Origin: Promethearchaeota archaeon | GTDB taxonomy: Archaea; Asgardarchaeota; Lokiarchaeia; Sigyniarchaeales; Promethearchaeaceae | Reading direction: 5' to 3' | Assembly: GCA_016933055.1 (NCBI GenBank) | Contig: JAFGBS010000028.1 | Span: 240,001 to 272,000 of the forward strand | DNA length: 32,000 nt | Shown: positions 22,150-31,701 of the stretch, piece by piece | Layout of the letters: every line of letters starts with the position of its first letter | Numbering within the stretch: position 1 is the stretch's first letter | Program-made: the position numbers and the translations under genes | Notes under the pieces: generated by a model | Seen by the model: only the letters and a program-made list of their open reading frames with translations | What the model was told of the DNA's origin: nothing | Databases searched by the model: none

Positions 22150-23187
22150 CTACTCCTTAACGGATTGTAAAAGCCTGATATGGCATATTAATTCTTCTGT
22201 GGATATTTCATTTTTTTGAAAGCGTTTTCCCAGTTCGCTAATAATATATAAGGGAGTAAATGTGAAAAAATGGATTTCTGAAAGGGGATAGAGAAAATCT
22301 TCTACCTCAATTATTAATTTCAGATCTCTGAGTTTTTGATAGGACTGGATATCTTGGGAGATCATATCTAAAAAGCGTCCGCGTTTTAGTTTATTTTCAT
22401 ATAAAATCTTTAAACTGTTGTAAATTTGGGAATCGCTTAACAGTTTAGAAATTTTCATCAAGTTCTCTTCATCATCTTTTTCAGGTCTATAAGTATTAAA
22501 AAATTCGATCAAATAAGATATATATTTTTTATCCATATCATCATTACTTTCTAACAACGCATGATATAAGTCATTTGGGGGAATTCGACCCCCATATACA
22601 TCCTTTATCATGTAAAAATTGTTCGATCCATGTATTGTGTTTTCTGTAACCAATCCTAAATGTTGGAATGGAGTAATTAAAATATCGAAATTTGTCTCAG
22701 CAAGACCATATCGTGTATTTAGATTTTGACATAAGTTGTCTTTGCTAATTACCCCCTTTCGGAGGGAATTTAATATAATTAATTTATGTTTATCCTTGTA
22801 AAGGTTGAAAAATAGTTGATCTCGATTCAATTTGGAATAATCTTCAATCATGGAGTAGGTTTCAGATAAAATTCGGGAAAAATTAGGTTTTCCGATAGCA
22901 TTAAACAAAGTGGGTGATAAATTAAGGAAAACATCTTGGTATTTGCTGGAATTTTCTTTAATGTTTAACTCTAATAATGAGAAATAGAATTCATTGTGTG
23001 ATTTGTACATGATTGATAAGTAATTTTGATGGTCTTCGACAAAATTAACTATTGATTCATTATTTAGCTCATGTAATGCCCAAATGCGAAGGAGTATTTC
23101 CTTTTTGGGAAATTCGAGATCTGGAGGATATTGTCTGATAGGAGCGGGTCCAAGTTGATGGTCCCATTTAAAAATAGATAATTTCAC
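22150..23187 (-). CDS. Longin/uDENN-like N-terminal domain protein (paralog of 30622..31701)
   Basis: N-terminal FKWDHQLGPAPIRQYP matches the uDENN-type first strand and GP..YP turn. It has winged-helix-like segments (LNSLRKGVISKDNL) and is colinear with the 359 aa paralog. Confidence 0.6.
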   Translation of the reverse strand: MKLSIFKWDHQLGPAPIRQYPPDLEFPKKEILLRIWALHELNNESIVNFVEDHQNYLSIMYKSHNEFYFSLLELNIKENSSKYQDVFLNLSPTLFNAIGKPNFSRILSETYSMIEDYSKLNRDQLFFNLYKDKHKLIILNSLRKGVISKDNLCQNLNTRYGLAETNFDILITPFQHLGLVTENTIHGSNNFYMIKDVYGGRIPPNDLYHALLESNDDMDKKYISYLIEFFNTYRPEKDDEENLMKISKLLSDSQIYNSLKILYENKLKRGRFLDMISQDIQSYQKLRDLKLIIEVEDFLYPLSEIHFFTFTPLYIISELGKRFQKNEISTEELICHIRLLQSVKE

Positions 23188-23327: not shown

Positions 23328-24407
23328 TTATGATTTGGTTTCGATTTTTTCATAGTCATCTTCTTCTTCATCTTCTTCCTCTAAAGCTTTAAGACGCTGC
23401 TCAACCCGCTTATCTTCATCCTCGATGATATTTTTCTTTTTTTCTTCCAATTCTTTTAATTCCAGTTCTTTTTCCGCTTTCTCCAACTCTGCTCGTTTTC
23501 GATTGATCTCCAATTCTTGTTCTAACATTTCGGCTTTTTGTTTGATCATTTCCTCTTGAATTTCTTTCTCTTTCTCTTCGACTAGTAATTTTGCTTCCTT
23601 GAGCGCTATTTCCTTCTCACGAAGTGCTTGTTCTTTTTCCTCTATTTCCTTTTTCTTCTGATCAAAAAGGTTTTCTTGTTCTTTGCGTTCTTTTTGGTGA
23701 GCAACTTCTTCCTCACGCTTTTTAATTTCTTCTTGCTTTAATTTTACTTCTTCTTCGGTGAGATCTTTTTCTTTCTTATCCAGAACTTTTTTCTGAATTT
23801 CAAGATGCTTTTTCTCCATTTCCTCAGATTCTAGATTTTTTACGTTCACTATTTCCTTTAACACTATTTCTGCATTCTCATGTGTTTGCTCATCGGAAGT
23901 AGATTTAAGAAAATCCAAAATTTTATCCTCAACTTCCAACTGGCAATGTTTTCCTAGTGTTTTCAGAAATGCTATGGCTTTTTTTTGTACAAAATCCATT
24001 TCATCAGCTAACATTGATACAACGGTATCAATTAGCGATTTGGTATCATTTGGATGGGCGTTTGCGGTAAAAGTCAATAATTGGAGCATACTTTCACGGG
24101 TATTTGCATTATCCGAAACAAGATATTCTTTAGCGAAAGGTAAGATAAGTTGGGGATCTTTTTCAGATAATGTCTTGAGTGACAATATTAAGGAATATCG
24201 TAGAACATCATTCTCAATACCTATAAGCTTTAACAAGGCAGGATAGATTGCTTGGATGGTTCCAGGATATTCAGCGACAATACGATTGAGATTGTGTATT
24301 AAATTCTCTACAAATTCATCATTATTAACTTCAGACAAACGTTCCAATATTTGATCTATGGCTGTTTGGGTTTTTTCTTGTCCCAACAGCGTAAAGATTT
24401 CTTCCAT
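23328..24407 (-). CDS. HEAT/ARM-repeat protein with a long charged coiled-coil C-terminus
   Basis: Repeats such as LLKLIGIENDVLRYSLILSL, YLVSDNANTRESMLQLL and MLADEMDFVQKKAIAFL, then about 150 aa of E/K-rich heptads and an acidic tail. Start is at 24407 (MEEIF) or 24431. Confidence 0.75.
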   Translation of the reverse strand: MEEIFTLLGQEKTQTAIDQILERLSEVNNDEFVENLIHNLNRIVAEYPGTIQAIYPALLKLIGIENDVLRYSLILSLKTLSEKDPQLILPFAKEYLVSDNANTRESMLQLLTFTANAHPNDTKSLIDTVVSMLADEMDFVQKKAIAFLKTLGKHCQLEVEDKILDFLKSTSDEQTHENAEIVLKEIVNVKNLESEEMEKKHLEIQKKVLDKKEKDLTEEEVKLKQEEIKKREEEVAHQKERKEQENLFDQKKKEIEEKEQALREKEIALKEAKLLVEEKEKEIQEEMIKQKAEMLEQELEINRKRAELEKAEKELELKELEEKKKNIIEDEDKRVEQRLKALEEEDEEEDDYEKIETKS

Positions 24408-24420
24408 ACTATTCTCTCTT

Positions 24421-25413
24421 CTATATTTCATTTAATAGATTTATACTTTCGGCTTCCATTAGGGTAGATAATTTATTAAATACAAAATTCACATCGTCAA
24501 ATGTAGAATTTTTATTAACTTCGACGCTTACCTGTAAATCTAATTTTTCAGTAAAATTGAAGGTAGTGCGAGGAAATTTGGGACTTAAATCTTCAGTTAT
24601 TTGACTAAATCTTTGATCTAATTGTTCATCCTCAATTTGAATGATATTTTTTCGTTTAATTCCGATTTGTAATAATGTTTCTTTACCAGAAACGGCATCC
24701 AAATCGATTCTAAAATCTTTTCCCTCAGCATACAGCGGAATTATGAGATCTAAAATCTCCATGGAGTCAATCTGTTCTTTATGAGTGTTGCAAATTGCAT
24801 ATCCTTTATGAAGATCTGCTATAAAAAGTGTGTTCGATCTCCAGATAATAAAGTAATTAGAACTTACGTCATAAATAAAGGAACCTTCTCGAATCATTTT
24901 TTCCCTTTTCAAAATCGTGCGTAATATACCCGGTCGTTCTTTGCGGGTTTTACTGTAAATCGCTGGTGTATTGGATTTTGAAATGATTTTATTGATAGTT
25001 TTGATTCCTTCTTCATTAAGTCCTTCTACCCCTAAATCTCTGGTCAATTTGAGGAGTTCTTGGGCATCCCGTCCAAAAAATAACTTAAAAAAATCCTCGT
25101 TATAAATTATCACATCAACAGGAGTAAAAAGAGTGGTTTTTCCTTCAATGAACCGGTTTATGTTTGATAGTACTTGATTGTAGCAAAATACTGGTAATTC
25201 TTTTAAGCTACTTCCTGATAATATACGAACGTTTATTAGAAATCGACGTCTACACATTGGATTTAAGACATTATTCATACGATCTGAAACACATTCATTG
25301 CATAAATTGTCAATATACTCCTTAAGATATCCCATCATGATCTGCTGTTCACGAGGGCGTATGTTCTTAAACACCTTGTGGAGATTTTCTGGAGTAAATG
25401 ACATATTTTTCAC
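24421..25413 (-). CDS. Hypothetical soluble protein with an N-terminal Cys cluster
   Basis: 330 aa ORF containing LCNEC...PMC....FC. Tightly packed in the minus-strand run. Confidence 0.7.
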   Translation of the reverse strand: MKNMSFTPENLHKVFKNIRPREQQIMMGYLKEYIDNLCNECVSDRMNNVLNPMCRRRFLINVRILSGSSLKELPVFCYNQVLSNINRFIEGKTTLFTPVDVIIYNEDFFKLFFGRDAQELLKLTRDLGVEGLNEEGIKTINKIISKSNTPAIYSKTRKERPGILRTILKREKMIREGSFIYDVSSNYFIIWRSNTLFIADLHKGYAICNTHKEQIDSMEILDLIIPLYAEGKDFRIDLDAVSGKETLLQIGIKRKNIIQIEDEQLDQRFSQITEDLSPKFPRTTFNFTEKLDLQVSVEVNKNSTFDDVNFVFNKLSTLMEAESINLLNEI

Positions 25414-25427
25414 CGATTTTGGTATTT

Positions 25428-27143
25428 TTAGGAGCGTTGTATATATTTTTCCCTTTCTTCTATTTTTTTAACATAGAGATTTGCTGCATTCAGAATATCT
25501 TGCTCATTTAGAATATCTTTATTGAGTTTTAATTGAATTTGTTGAATAAAGGTACGACAATTATCTAAGCTCAGATTTCTACCGCGTTCTTGGATCGTCT
25601 TGTGTAATAACTCTGCCTCATAATTTAATCTTTCTTCTTCTGTACCAACAGAAATTTCCTTTATTGGAGGAGGTAACGGTTCAGCAATAGGAGGATCCGT
25701 ATGTGTAAACATATCATGTAGGAAAGATTGTTTTTCTTGCTGTTTTTTTTCTTGAAATTCCGTGTATTTGTCCACTGTTTCTTCTCCCTTCTTATCCGCG
25801 ACATCTGTTTTAGATTTTGAGGACTCCTTTGGTTTTAAACCTACGATGTCATTTTTCACAAGTGGAGATCGTTCAAAAGTAAGTTTTTTGTCTTTAACTC
25901 CTGCGAATTTTCCTGATCGAGGAATTTGTGTCGTTTCTCGTTTTCTTTTTAAATTAGTGGGATCTTCAGTTAATGAGCTTATAGAAGGTATTTCAATTTT
26001 TTGCCCAGATTTTTGAGTACCCAAACCATCGAGAGATTTTACAGTAATAACGTCTTTGAAGGTGACCCTTTGAGGTGCCATAAACGTTTTCTCTGCTGGT
26101 TTTTCTTCTATTATTTGGTCTACAGGGATTTCACCTTTTAATTCCATGACTTTTTTTCGGAATAGAGCTACATATTCTAGTTCTTGATATTCTTCCGCAA
26201 TTTTGATAAGTTGTTCTATGATTTTTATTGCTTGGGGGTAATCATCTTTCTCAATAGCTTTGTTGCTCTCAACTATGAGATCTTTGAATCTGGGGGGTAA
26301 TGAACGTTTTAACTCTAAATGTCTTTGTAATAGCTCCTTTATCTGAGTGACCTTTTCATCGTCTGTTATATCATATACAAAAGACTCCGATTTTAATTCG
26401 GTGGAGTATTGCTCTTGGAATTTGTTTACTACGACTGCATCTAAATTTTTAGAATGGGATAAGAGAAATACCTTTCTCGTAAAAGGAACTTCTCGTTTAA
26501 ACAAATTAATAAAATTCTCAATTTTTCTGGTGCTTTTTTCAAACGAATTGAATACAAAAACAACCAAATCCGATCCTCTTATATAATTTCCCCATAATGG
26601 AGAAAAATCATCTTCTAAGATGAAATCCCATAAATCGAAATATAAATTTCCTAATTGGATTTTGTGTACCCTCGCAAAATCCATTATGTCTCGTGTTTCC
26701 TCTCCTTTTTTAGATAATCGTTCTGCTAAAGCTGTTTTTCCACTACCCCAGGGTCCAATAAGCGTAATTTTGGGATGTAGAGAATAATGAATTTCTTCAA
26801 TTAATCCATCGAGTTCTCGTTTATTTTCCATTTCGGATACAAGATCTTCCACATTTAAACCACTCCCGGATAATGTGTTCGATAGAGTTTTTATCTCATC
26901 TTGGACGCTCTTAGATTTATCGCCTGTATCTGTCACAAATATATAGAAGATATCATTTAATTGTCCAAAAACAATTTGGAAATTAAAAATTGGTCGGTGA
27001 AACAGTTGATTCTGAGCGGGCTTTACGATAAACTCATTAATTTTATCTAGAACTTGCTCAAACTCTTCACTCGTATACGCTAGTGCAAAGCTTCGCCTAT
27101 AAATTACTTTTTTGTCTTTAAGTAAGAATACTTGTCTTAACAT
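25428..27143 (-). CDS. Longin-domain + small GTPase-like (degenerate G3/G4) + helical/low-complexity protein
   Basis: Longin-like N-terminus (RQVFLLK..VIYRRSF ... FYIFVTD), P-loop GPWGSGKT, LWDF..F..LW.NYIRGSDLVVFV, a helical hairpin (KAIEKDDYPQAIKII) and a charged linker. Confidence 0.8.
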   Translation of the reverse strand: MLRQVFLLKDKKVIYRRSFALAYTSEEFEQVLDKINEFIVKPAQNQLFHRPIFNFQIVFGQLNDIFYIFVTDTGDKSKSVQDEIKTLSNTLSGSGLNVEDLVSEMENKRELDGLIEEIHYSLHPKITLIGPWGSGKTALAERLSKKGEETRDIMDFARVHKIQLGNLYFDLWDFILEDDFSPLWGNYIRGSDLVVFVFNSFEKSTRKIENFINLFKREVPFTRKVFLLSHSKNLDAVVVNKFQEQYSTELKSESFVYDITDDEKVTQIKELLQRHLELKRSLPPRFKDLIVESNKAIEKDDYPQAIKIIEQLIKIAEEYQELEYVALFRKKVMELKGEIPVDQIIEEKPAEKTFMAPQRVTFKDVITVKSLDGLGTQKSGQKIEIPSISSLTEDPTNLKRKRETTQIPRSGKFAGVKDKKLTFERSPLVKNDIVGLKPKESSKSKTDVADKKGEETVDKYTEFQEKKQQEKQSFLHDMFTHTDPPIAEPLPPPIKEISVGTEEERLNYEAELLHKTIQERGRNLSLDNCRTFIQQIQLKLNKDILNEQDILNAANLYVKKIEEREKYIQRS

Positions 27144-30621: not shown

Positions 30622-31701
30622 TTATTGAACTTTATAAGCATCCTCTAGAATCGAAAGATGTTCTACTAAGACCATGTCATTTTTAACTTTATCATTGTAG
30701 TCTTGTCTTATGACATTCAAGATATATTCTGGAAAAATCCTCTTAATGCAAATGTCCGATTTTAAAGCATAATACTCGTTACCTGCTGGATCTTGCATTA
30801 CAGATAAGAAATTTGCGTCCCATAGGTTCTTCAAAACCATTTCCAAGTCCTCAACCCCTTTCTTCTGAAGTTTTTCCAGATCATCGCGAGTAACAATGGC
30901 TTGCCTCATTAATTTTACAGCCTCATAGGTTTGAGGATCTAAGAGCGTTTCGACCATCACTAAATTATCCTCTTCGGTAGGATTGTATGATTCGAAAAGG
31001 GTCTTGCATTCGGTCAAATAGTCCTCGGTAAGTTCAATGGGTAGTCCTCTCGCATTGGGATTTTTTAATAGGGTCACTACAGGTTGTCTGTATATCATAA
31101 TATCACCACTGAGAAAGAGTGTTTCTACAGCAAGTTGCTTAACTGATATCTGCTTGACAATCCCAATTTTTACAAAATTTGATACTACGCTTTCAATATC
31201 GATAAATCCAGTTTTATACAGATCTTTCAACCACACAGCTACCTCGGAACGTGCCACTGATCCCTCTTCCCGCAATCTCTGGATTAATACTCGTTTTGTT
31301 TCATCGAAATACAGCATCATTAAGCGCTGTTCTTCATCCAATTTGGGATAAATGGATACACGTTGAAATAACGAGGGAAGTATTTGCCTATACGCCTCTC
31401 CATCCATATTCTGTACGACAACTCGGCATACGTCTGCTAAACCGTCCTCAAAAGTGTCAGGATCCTCATCTACTGTTAATACAAGGATCACATAAAGACT
31501 ATGATCTGGACCGCTAAAATAACTTGCAATAGTAGACGCTCCTGCCATAAGACTGATCATACCTGCTTCTTGATTGTATTCGTGGGTACTATAAACTTGC
31601 ATTAAAGTCTTATCTGTAACTAAAAGTTCTTCCGGATATTTCGCTAGTGTTTCTGCACCAATTCTTTCATCCCATCTCATCAATACGATTCCAATAGGCA
31701 T
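30622..31701 (-). CDS. Longin/uDENN-like N-terminal domain protein, Asgard-type
   Basis: MRWDERIGAETLAKYP, followed by a longin-like strand/helix pattern (IASYFSG..YVILVL..DEDP) and winged-helix-like regions. TAATG stop/start overlap with the upstream gene. Confidence 0.65.
   Translation of the reverse strand: MPIGIVLMRWDERIGAETLAKYPEELLVTDKTLMQVYSTHEYNQEAGMISLMAGASTIASYFSGPDHSLYVILVLTVDEDPDTFEDGLADVCRVVVQNMDGEAYRQILPSLFQRVSIYPKLDEEQRLMMLYFDETKRVLIQRLREEGSVARSEVAVWLKDLYKTGFIDIESVVSNFVKIGIVKQISVKQLAVETLFLSGDIMIYRQPVVTLLKNPNARGLPIELTEDYLTECKTLFESYNPTEEDNLVMVETLLDPQTYEAVKLMRQAIVTRDDLEKLQKKGVEDLEMVLKNLWDANFLSVMQDPAGNEYYALKSDICIKRIFPEYILNVIRQDYNDKVKNDMVLVEHLSILEDAYKVQ

Follow-up and report, generated by a model that had tools for sequence, protein, structure and literature searches.

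The fusion of longin domains to lokiarchaeal Arf-like GTPases has been known since 2016 (Klinger et al., as cited in PMC4917890), longin-GTPase fusions have been modelled for MK-D1 (Tran et al. 2024, PMC10933270), and N-terminal longin domains occur among the 'AArf' proteins (PMC11914678). The longin-Arf-like architecture as such is already published and is not new. A second point of reference is AAGAB, whose class i pseudo-GTPase domain binds sigma-adaptin and is followed by a linker and a small C-terminal helical domain (PMC12490416). Here we describe a member of the archaeal longin-GTPase family that has probably ceased to be a switch. It is encoded in a window of 32,000 nucleotides, the whole stretch of DNA that was analysed (Promethearchaeota archaeon, assembly GCA_016933055.1, contig JAFGBS010000028.1, positions 240,001 to 272,000 of the forward strand), which comes from a Loki-type Asgard archaeon of low GC content (~33%). 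The gene lies at 25428..27143 on the minus strand of the window, the strand on which all window features given below are found. An original prediction, made from the sequence alone, had called its product a probable pseudo-GTPase with an intact P-loop and broken G3 and G4 motifs. The reading that we favour, with a probability of about 0.7, is that the protein is indeed a pseudo-GTPase, that the ancestors of its Arf-like G domain were working longin-GTPase switches of Asgard archaea, and that the domain would now act as a permanent, nucleotide-independent interaction module.

According to the list of open reading frames (ORFs) and its translation, the gene encodes 571 amino acids, from an ATG start to the stop codon at 25428-25430, and MLRQ is the N-terminus of every orthologue. 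The 15 full-length orthologues are 29-70% identical and, like the other orthologues of the gene, sit in metagenome-assembled genomes of Promethearchaeota/Lokiarchaeota. From translation and orthologue comparison, the product consists of a longin domain, a degenerate Arf-like G domain, a helical hairpin, a disordered linker and a C-terminal helical domain. A search of 1.8 billion representatives with residues 1-300 returned 196 relatives, and more than 100 representatives are co-linear with the protein over the longin and G domains (residues 1-295); this shared layout, together with its position in the tree among such proteins, places it in the longin-Arf-like fusion family. The G domain (residues 123-275, 26319..26777) scores above threshold with Pfam Roc and Arf. 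When a profile of the degenerate clade described below was compared with PDB sequences, the top 60 matches were all Arf or Arl proteins (Arf6, E 5.5e-12). Foldseek and VIA matched residues 117-279 to Arf, Arl, Rab and Rag, with VIA Z scores of 15-18 against small GTPases, as befits a P-loop NTPase G-domain fold.

In a joint MAFFT alignment, 66 relatives are fully canonical, reading GFSGVGKTT, HIPTITGD, WDFAGQEQF and NKQDL. The window protein retains the first of these motifs: its G1/P-loop is GPWGSGKT (residues 130-137, 26733..26756), and the GxxxxGK[ST] pattern is kept by 22 of the 25 representatives of its own subclade and by 18 of the 20 of the sister subclade. The switch I remnant I-M-D-F-A (residues 153-157, 26670..26684) carries D155 where HMMER alignments to Arf1 and Arf2 place the G2 Thr. 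This site is P-T, in the context P-T-I-x-G, in 66/66 canonical relatives versus M-[DN] in the degenerate clade, and a relocated switch I Thr at T150 was ruled out, T150 not being conserved. At the G3 position, WDFILE (residues 172-177, 26613..26630) falls on WDVGGQ of Arf in HMMER. The Asp is retained as D173, as it is in 22/25 of the subclade; the Gly, present in all 66 canonical relatives, has become L176, and the Gln, present in 64 of them, has become E177. Throughout the degenerate clade the G3 Gly is gone, with the sole exception of P0009 (WDEVG). The G4 position, at the end of strand 224-229 in the AlphaFold2 (AF2) model, reads LSHSK (residues 228-232, 26448..26462), so that S229-H230-S231-K232 stands for an N-K-x-D whose N, K and D are each found in 66/66 canonical relatives. 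NKxD persists in the sister subclade, and the window-protein subclade has [ST]-H, with His in 23/25. A shifted G4 within 'SKNLD' was ruled out, as K232 and D235 vary among orthologues. With an alignment less certain than that of G1-G4, the G5 position reads Y-D-I-T versus [VI]-A-[TI]-D in the canonical relatives, its Ala being replaced by Ile. Misalignment as a mask for canonical motifs was likewise ruled out: the substitutions are no alignment artefact, because the HMMER placement against Arf and the MAFFT placement with the 66 canonical relatives agree.

GPWGSGKT, WDFILE and LSHSK all lie where the original prediction had put them, and the combination of an intact P-loop with a broken G3 and G4 is borne out on both alignments, including the comparison with the canonical Asgard relatives. 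Its list of broken motifs was right for these two and too short, given that G2 and G5 are non-canonical as well. The substitutions are common to the orthologues and the G fold is retained in the structure model, and the label of probable pseudo-GTPase held in all the proposed tests that were run (alignment, orthologues, structure model and tree). The protein also fits the definition of the class: it has a GTPase fold, its altered G motifs are predicted to impair binding or hydrolysis, and it is conserved as a protein.

The history of these losses can be read from a tree of 117 N-terminal regions labelled by G1-G4 motif state. All degenerate forms group together in a single clade (46 rows; support, 100; length of the stem, 1.06) that is nested among the 66 canonical longin-GTPases, which keep all four scored motifs. 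Within it the states are themselves nested. A subclade of 19 rows keeps G1 and G4 and lacks G2 and G3 (state 1001), reading IMNFA and WDFQLKDNF; a subclade of 26 rows, which includes the window protein, has lost G4 as well (1000); and inside the latter a sublineage of three rows (P0013, P0014 and P0030) has also lost the P-loop, which reads GPSPFDRQK, together with D173, replaced by N (0000). In these P-loop-less members the longin and C-terminal domains, the two linker motifs and the IMNFA and FSPLW residues all persist. Sorted by genome, each of the two subclades matches one of the two families of a single order, and they are orthologues, not paralogues. The states thus trace a loss order in which G2 and G3 went on the clade stem, G4 next, and G1 last in one sublineage; with less certainty, G5 was probably lost at the same step as G4. 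In terms of function, the nested motif states and the parts specific to the clade point to a sequence in which catalysis and switching were lost before base recognition, and base recognition before phosphate binding, with new parts gained meanwhile.

The largest of the new parts is the C-terminal three-helix domain (residues 501-571, 25431..25643; AF2 confidence, as predicted local distance difference test score or pLDDT, 79-90). Using jackhmmer, 45 matches to it were obtained, none in canonical relatives. Its profile is found in single copy in 40/43 sampled genomes of the order's two families, and in 158 other genomes of the phylum it gives one marginal match, containing stop codons; within the class, 118/121 genomes give a longin-GTPase match. 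The domain emerges on the clade stem, alongside the loss of G2 and G3. It has no PDB sequence match at E <0.1 and no Atlas match, and in the fold searches with the full model, whose lists were filled by GTPases, it stood effectively outside the search. In one genus (G005:C117:6212-6382, G037:C186:7498-7650 and G024:C223:2160-2309) the match to the domain profile crosses one or two TAA codons, which may mean either an early end of the protein or a decaying domain in that genus.

Two further acquisitions lie in the disordered charged linker (residues 341-500, 25644..26123; pLDDT 31-55), which shows the lowest conservation in the protein, with 57% identity within the genus. One is the motif A-P-x-[KR]-[IV]-x-F (APQRVTF, residues 356-362, 26058..26078), in which A356, P357 and F362 are (near-)invariant among orthologues; it occurs in 22/45 degenerate and 0/66 canonical representatives, and the form APxKIxF is confined to the degenerate clade. 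The other is LTFERSPL (residues 421-428, 25860..25883), with L421, T422, E424, S426 and P427 (near-)invariant. The strict pattern is present in 17/45 degenerate representatives, all 17 within the window-protein subclade, and in 0/66 canonical ones.

Within the degenerate clade, conservation along the protein is highest in the old switch region. M154, F156, A157, W172, S181, L183, W184, G190 and D192 are (near-)invariant there. W172 and Y187 align by HMMER on W66 and Y81 of Arf1, residues which we take to be part of its hydrophobic effector-binding patch; F156 aligns at Arf1 I49, beside a one-residue gap opposite F51, so that the third equivalence of the patch is uncertain. Compared with a same-genus orthologue of 69% identity, the nonsynonymous divergence (dN) is 0.13 in the longin domain, 0.24 in the G domain, 0.16 in the hairpin, 0.35 in the linker and 0.22 in the C-terminal domain; as the synonymous divergence (dS) is saturated, the dN/dS comparison can be stated only as dN far below dS. 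The reading frame is unbroken in every orthologue that was retrieved and translated. This pattern of substitution indicates that the gene is under purifying selection.

The domain layout of the original prediction (a longin-like domain, a hairpin, a linker and a small C-terminal helical domain) agrees with a full-length AF2 model built on 16 orthologues, with a pLDDT of 69 overall and >80 in the folded parts. It resolves a longin topology at residues 1-121, the G domain at 125-275, a hairpin at 284-336, disorder at 342-500 and a three-helix bundle at 502-570. The longin domain (residues 1-122, 26778..27143) was also modelled separately on 33 sequences, with a pLDDT of 90, and the model has the longin order of strand-strand-helix-three strands-two helices. 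Its best PDB matches in Foldseek are the sigma subunits of AP2, AP1 and AP3 (template modelling score, TM, 0.70), followed by COPI zeta, the longin of VAMP7 (TM 0.68), SRX, TRAPP and NPRL/LAMTOR chains. A profile of the 33 N-termini matched the VAMP7 longin (E 5e-4) and AP2 sigma (E 9e-4) in the PDB and gave no other significant match; Pfam Clat_adaptor_s was sub-threshold over the region (E 0.013). The N-terminal domain is a longin of the sigma-adaptin/VAMP7 type because the fold matches and the profile matches to VAMP7 and AP2 sigma converge on it. That this longin is the protein's own regulator does not follow, because the working members of the family have it too, the domain being ancestral to the family as a whole. 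The helical hairpin (residues 276-340, 26124..26318; AF2 helices 284-298, 302-318 and 322-336) is equally ancestral to the longin-GTPases, because jackhmmer finds it in degenerate members and in 38 canonical relatives alike. Residues 282-338 of the hairpin (26130-26300) give sub-threshold Pfam matches to Vps54_N (E 3.5e-4) and COG4_N (0.1), N-terminal coiled coils of tethering complexes, which probably reflect only a coiled-coil-like composition.

The degenerate G protein has a near-constant neighbour. In the window, the gene that comes after it on the same strand encodes an uncharacterised 330-aa protein with conserved Cys residues (24421..25413), and the one after that a 367-aa protein with HEAT repeats and an E/K-rich coiled coil (23328..24431), the latter gene and the stop of the 330-aa gene overlapping by 11 nt. 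Both genes were listed in 92 genomes of the class, and in 87 of these the distance from the pseudo-GTPase gene to the 330-aa gene is no more than 2.5 kb. Of these 87 pairs, 86 have the head-to-head orientation (median distance between the matched segments, 234 bp), and the tandem order of the window was seen only in its own genus. The HEAT gene comes directly after the 330-aa gene in 5/5 other loci examined. The 330-aa family was found in 106/121 genomes of the class; in the four genomes of other orders that bear on an older origin of the pair, its homologue is not beside a longin-GTPase, and because of this the pairing seems to have arisen with the degenerate clade. In other orders of the class (L040, L041, L042, L043; G002, G010, G014, G008) the 330-aa homologue is followed by a protein of 1245-1722 aa instead of the HEAT gene; this protein, which in L042 ends at a contig edge, has a helix-turn-helix-like N-terminus ('...LTYLTILNYGPLTMGEIS'). 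The genus without a P-loop (G018:C56, G054:C1, G019; loci L008, L012, L015 and L017) is also the genus in which the pairing is broken, the two genes being 10 kb apart, 87 kb apart or on separate contigs. In G105, a 472-aa gene with no Pfam match (L014:15044-16459, minus strand) is inserted and separates the pseudo-GTPase gene from the divergent 330-aa gene.

For the 330-aa protein, neither a relative in Pfam, PDB sequences or the Atlas nor a longer fused form was found. Its conserved Cys residues are C35-x2-C38, C51, C74 and C205. The homologues of other orders have a tighter C-x2-C-x6-C-x5-C cluster, because of which a zinc-binding N-terminal domain is suggested. The true start of the window gene may be the ATG at residue 4. 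As to the HEAT neighbour, its orthologues score above the Pfam HEAT_2 and HEAT thresholds, and its N-terminal part matches the HEAT repeats of CAND1 (E 4e-4); an identification as an adaptin was set aside, one orthologue giving a sub-threshold Adaptin_N match (23.8 bits, cut-off 37), and the protein was treated as a generic HEAT protein. A wider eukaryote-like run in the window, with a 345-aa longin-like protein, a 193-aa protein, PIG-L and actin, was rejected as part of the module: it is kept only in the same genus (L013), and it did not turn up beyond the HEAT gene in L016 and L017, the two loci whose flanks are long enough. The 345-aa protein of this run (22150-23187, minus strand) and a 359-aa protein (30622-31701, minus strand) are distant paralogues of ~20% identity by tblastn. 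On contig 16, a third relative of theirs (L019:3455-3820) is found at a distance of ~2.6 kb from the canonical longin-GTPase paralogue, and it may be the working GTPases, not the dead one, with which this longin-like family is associated.

In Ras-superfamily proteins, the switch I Thr and the switch II Gly sense the gamma-phosphate, and without both there is no two-state cycling; the G3 Gly and the G4 Asp are needed for switching and guanine specificity. Lacking both the Thr and the Gly for the gamma-phosphate, the G domain of the window protein would be unable to toggle between two states. Its old effector face would probably be frozen in one conformation and bind partners constitutively. A second platform could be the sigma-adaptin-like longin domain, which might dimerise or bind a GTPase, and the disordered tail, with its two short motifs and terminal helical domain, may recruit more partners. 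The likeliest partners or co-regulated components would be the products of the neighbouring genes, the 330-aa Cys-rich and the HEAT/coiled-coil proteins. The conserved function shared by the clade would not require a nucleotide, because in the P-loop-less orthologues the longin and C-terminal domains, the linker motifs and the conserved residues of the switch region are all still present. On the other side, most members are suggested still to hold a phosphate-bearing ligand as a structural cofactor, because GxxxxGK[ST] is present in 40/45 representatives and D173 was long kept; in the family of the window protein this ligand is predicted not to be guanine-specific, G4 and G5 being gone. For the window protein itself, with its P-loop and G3 Asp, the odds are about even between a nucleotide or phosphate held as a structural cofactor without base specificity and a nucleotide-free state.

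Several points weigh against this reading. Loss of motifs predicts, without proving, loss of hydrolysis or switching, and the P-loop of those 40 representatives argues that binding of phosphate or nucleotide still matters in most lineages, so that some behaviour that depends on a nucleotide may persist. The tree was built with FastTree, midpoint-rooted and with the motif columns included, and the full-length AF2 model has a predicted TM score (pTM) of only 0.51. As regards the partners, the candidates come from the gene neighbourhood, and a head-to-head arrangement can mean shared regulation rather than a complex. The sampled genomes are related, so that 87/92 overstates the number of independent observations, and the Cys cluster of the 330-aa protein could be the zinc finger of a regulator. 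A stable complex of the pseudo-GTPase, 330-aa and HEAT/coiled-coil proteins, with the longin and the frozen Arf-like domain seated on a HEAT solenoid, is in our estimation a long shot. If it did exist, the Arf-sigma-adaptin core, or else the assembly chaperones of AAGAB type, would have in it a counterpart that predates eukaryotes, and 'dead-switch' scaffolding of trafficking-type modules would have arisen in Asgard archaea.

The original prediction had left two possibilities side by side, a non-switching scaffold or an NTP binder of altered specificity. The second amounts to a still-active NTPase (hydrolysing nucleoside triphosphates, NTPs) with relaxed or altered base specificity and non-canonical catalysis, in which Walker A and the G3 Asp would bind Mg-NTP and the conserved His230 or the acidic E177-D179 stretch would substitute for the missing residues. 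It can draw on the retention of GxxxxGK[ST] and of D173, each in 22/25 of the subclade, on His230 in 23/25 at the former position of the G4 Lys, and on the finding that all three P-loop-less representatives also have D173 changed to N, a hint of two sites working together. This covariation is imperfect, however, as the same change occurs with an intact P-loop in P0054 and L020. Moreover, no conserved Ser or Thr is left anywhere in switch I, and the G3 Gly, which contacts the gamma-phosphate, has given way to bulky or charged residues that differ from one orthologue to another (E, L or Q). An active NTPase is thus unlikely, and it is the P-loop-less sublineage, in which every other feature is kept, that tips the choice towards the scaffold.

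Another possibility is that the protein is the inactive half of a heterodimer, joined through longin domains to a working longin-GTPase paralogue whose activity or location it would tune, as in Rag-type dimers and in pairs of an active with an inactive GTPase. A canonical paralogue is indeed encoded in the same genome (contig 16, 25% identity, with a GFSG P-loop region), and AF2-predicted dimers of longin- and roadblock-GTPase fusions are reported for MK-D1 by Tran et al. (PMC10933270). However, the two genes are on different contigs and were never adjacent in the loci examined, and the neighbour that is conserved is the 330-aa gene, not a GTPase. We regard such a dimer as distinctly unlikely in its own right; it is also compatible with the scaffold and does not exclude it. 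Finally, the motif changes might be plain erosion of a decaying gene, or an annotation artefact, to which the long stem branch of the clade and the loss of several G motifs could be taken to point. This is refuted by conservation and keeps practically no credence: the frame is intact in every orthologue translated, nearly all genomes of the order carry the gene, each in one copy, the saturated dS far exceeds dN, and new invariant residues, motifs and a domain have been gained.

Read as a non-switching scaffold, the protein offers a well-supported archaeal case of the 'dead enzyme' regulators that are common in eukaryotes, where pseudoenzymes derived from signalling enzymes are a hallmark of regulatory complexity. 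In the literature searched, bacterial and eukaryotic pseudo-GTPases are described and no archaeal one was found, nor was a graded decay series or the conserved gene pair. The series is a natural one, contained in one single-copy gene of one order and with fully canonical paralogues for comparison, and it allows one to ask which properties of an Arf-like domain outlast the loss of switching. The near-fixed partner gene makes orthologue pairing for co-evolution analysis easy and names concrete partner candidates. The case bears on Asgard cell biology and on pseudoenzyme research, and it cautions that not every Asgard 'small GTPase' can be counted as a working switch.

The closest known systems are the Asgard longin-Arf-like fusions themselves, inside which the window protein nests and with which it shares the N-terminal longin, the Arf/Rag-like G domain and the helical hairpin. 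Whereas the canonical fusions keep G1-G4 (66/66), this clade is without G2-G5 in its window-protein branch, and it adds the C-terminal helical domain, the linker motifs and a fixed neighbour gene. No mention of motif decay was found in the available portions of the literature on these fusions (PMC4917890, PMC10933270 and PMC11914678). Arf1, Arf6 and Arl8 are the best sequence matches of the G domain and have in common with it the interswitch W172 and the switch II pattern '...PLW..Y..G.D', but the window protein has a longin in place of their N-terminal amphipathic helix and lacks the G2 Thr, the G3 Gly/Gln, the G4 NKxD and the G5 Ala. The RGK proteins (Gem/Rad) and Rnd are nucleotide-binding pseudo-GTPases that keep G4 and G5 and bind guanine nucleotides. 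They resemble the degenerate clade in an intact G1 with non-canonical G2 and G3, and Gem ranks 7 in the structure search (Z 16.0); the sister subclade, which keeps NKxD, fits them best, whereas the window-protein subclade has lost both G4 and G5.

The receptor of the signal recognition particle (SRP), represented by SRX of SR-alpha with SR-beta (PDB 1nrj, 2fh5), likewise joins a longin-type domain to an Arf-like G domain, with a long charged linker in SR-alpha; SRX ranks 10 for the longin model and SR-beta 31 for the G domain. However, SR-beta is a working GTPase and the receptor is made of two separate chains, while the window protein has neither an SRP-type NG domain nor a membrane anchor. 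AAGAB shares with the window protein the pairing of a dead G domain with a sigma-adaptin-type longin, the order of pseudo-G domain, linker and small C-terminal helices, and HEAT-repeat partners, which for the archaeal protein are candidates. A specific sequence relation to AAGAB/Irc6 was not seen among the top 60 PDB matches of the G-domain profile, which are all Arf/Arl and do not include AAGAB, and the likeness is kept as an analogy. AAGAB has no P-loop and no nucleotide, whereas the P-loop of the window protein is intact and only its three P-loop-less relatives resemble AAGAB in this respect; and AAGAB contacts sigma as a separate chain, in trans, with the side that faces away from the switches, whereas here the longin is fused. 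The AP1 sigma3 chain of the complex with the AAGAB pseudo-GTPase domain (PDB 9ddt, chain 9ddt_B) ranks 2 in Foldseek for the window longin model, and that complex may serve, by analogy, as a precedent for the binding of a sigma-type longin subunit by a pseudo-GTPase domain.

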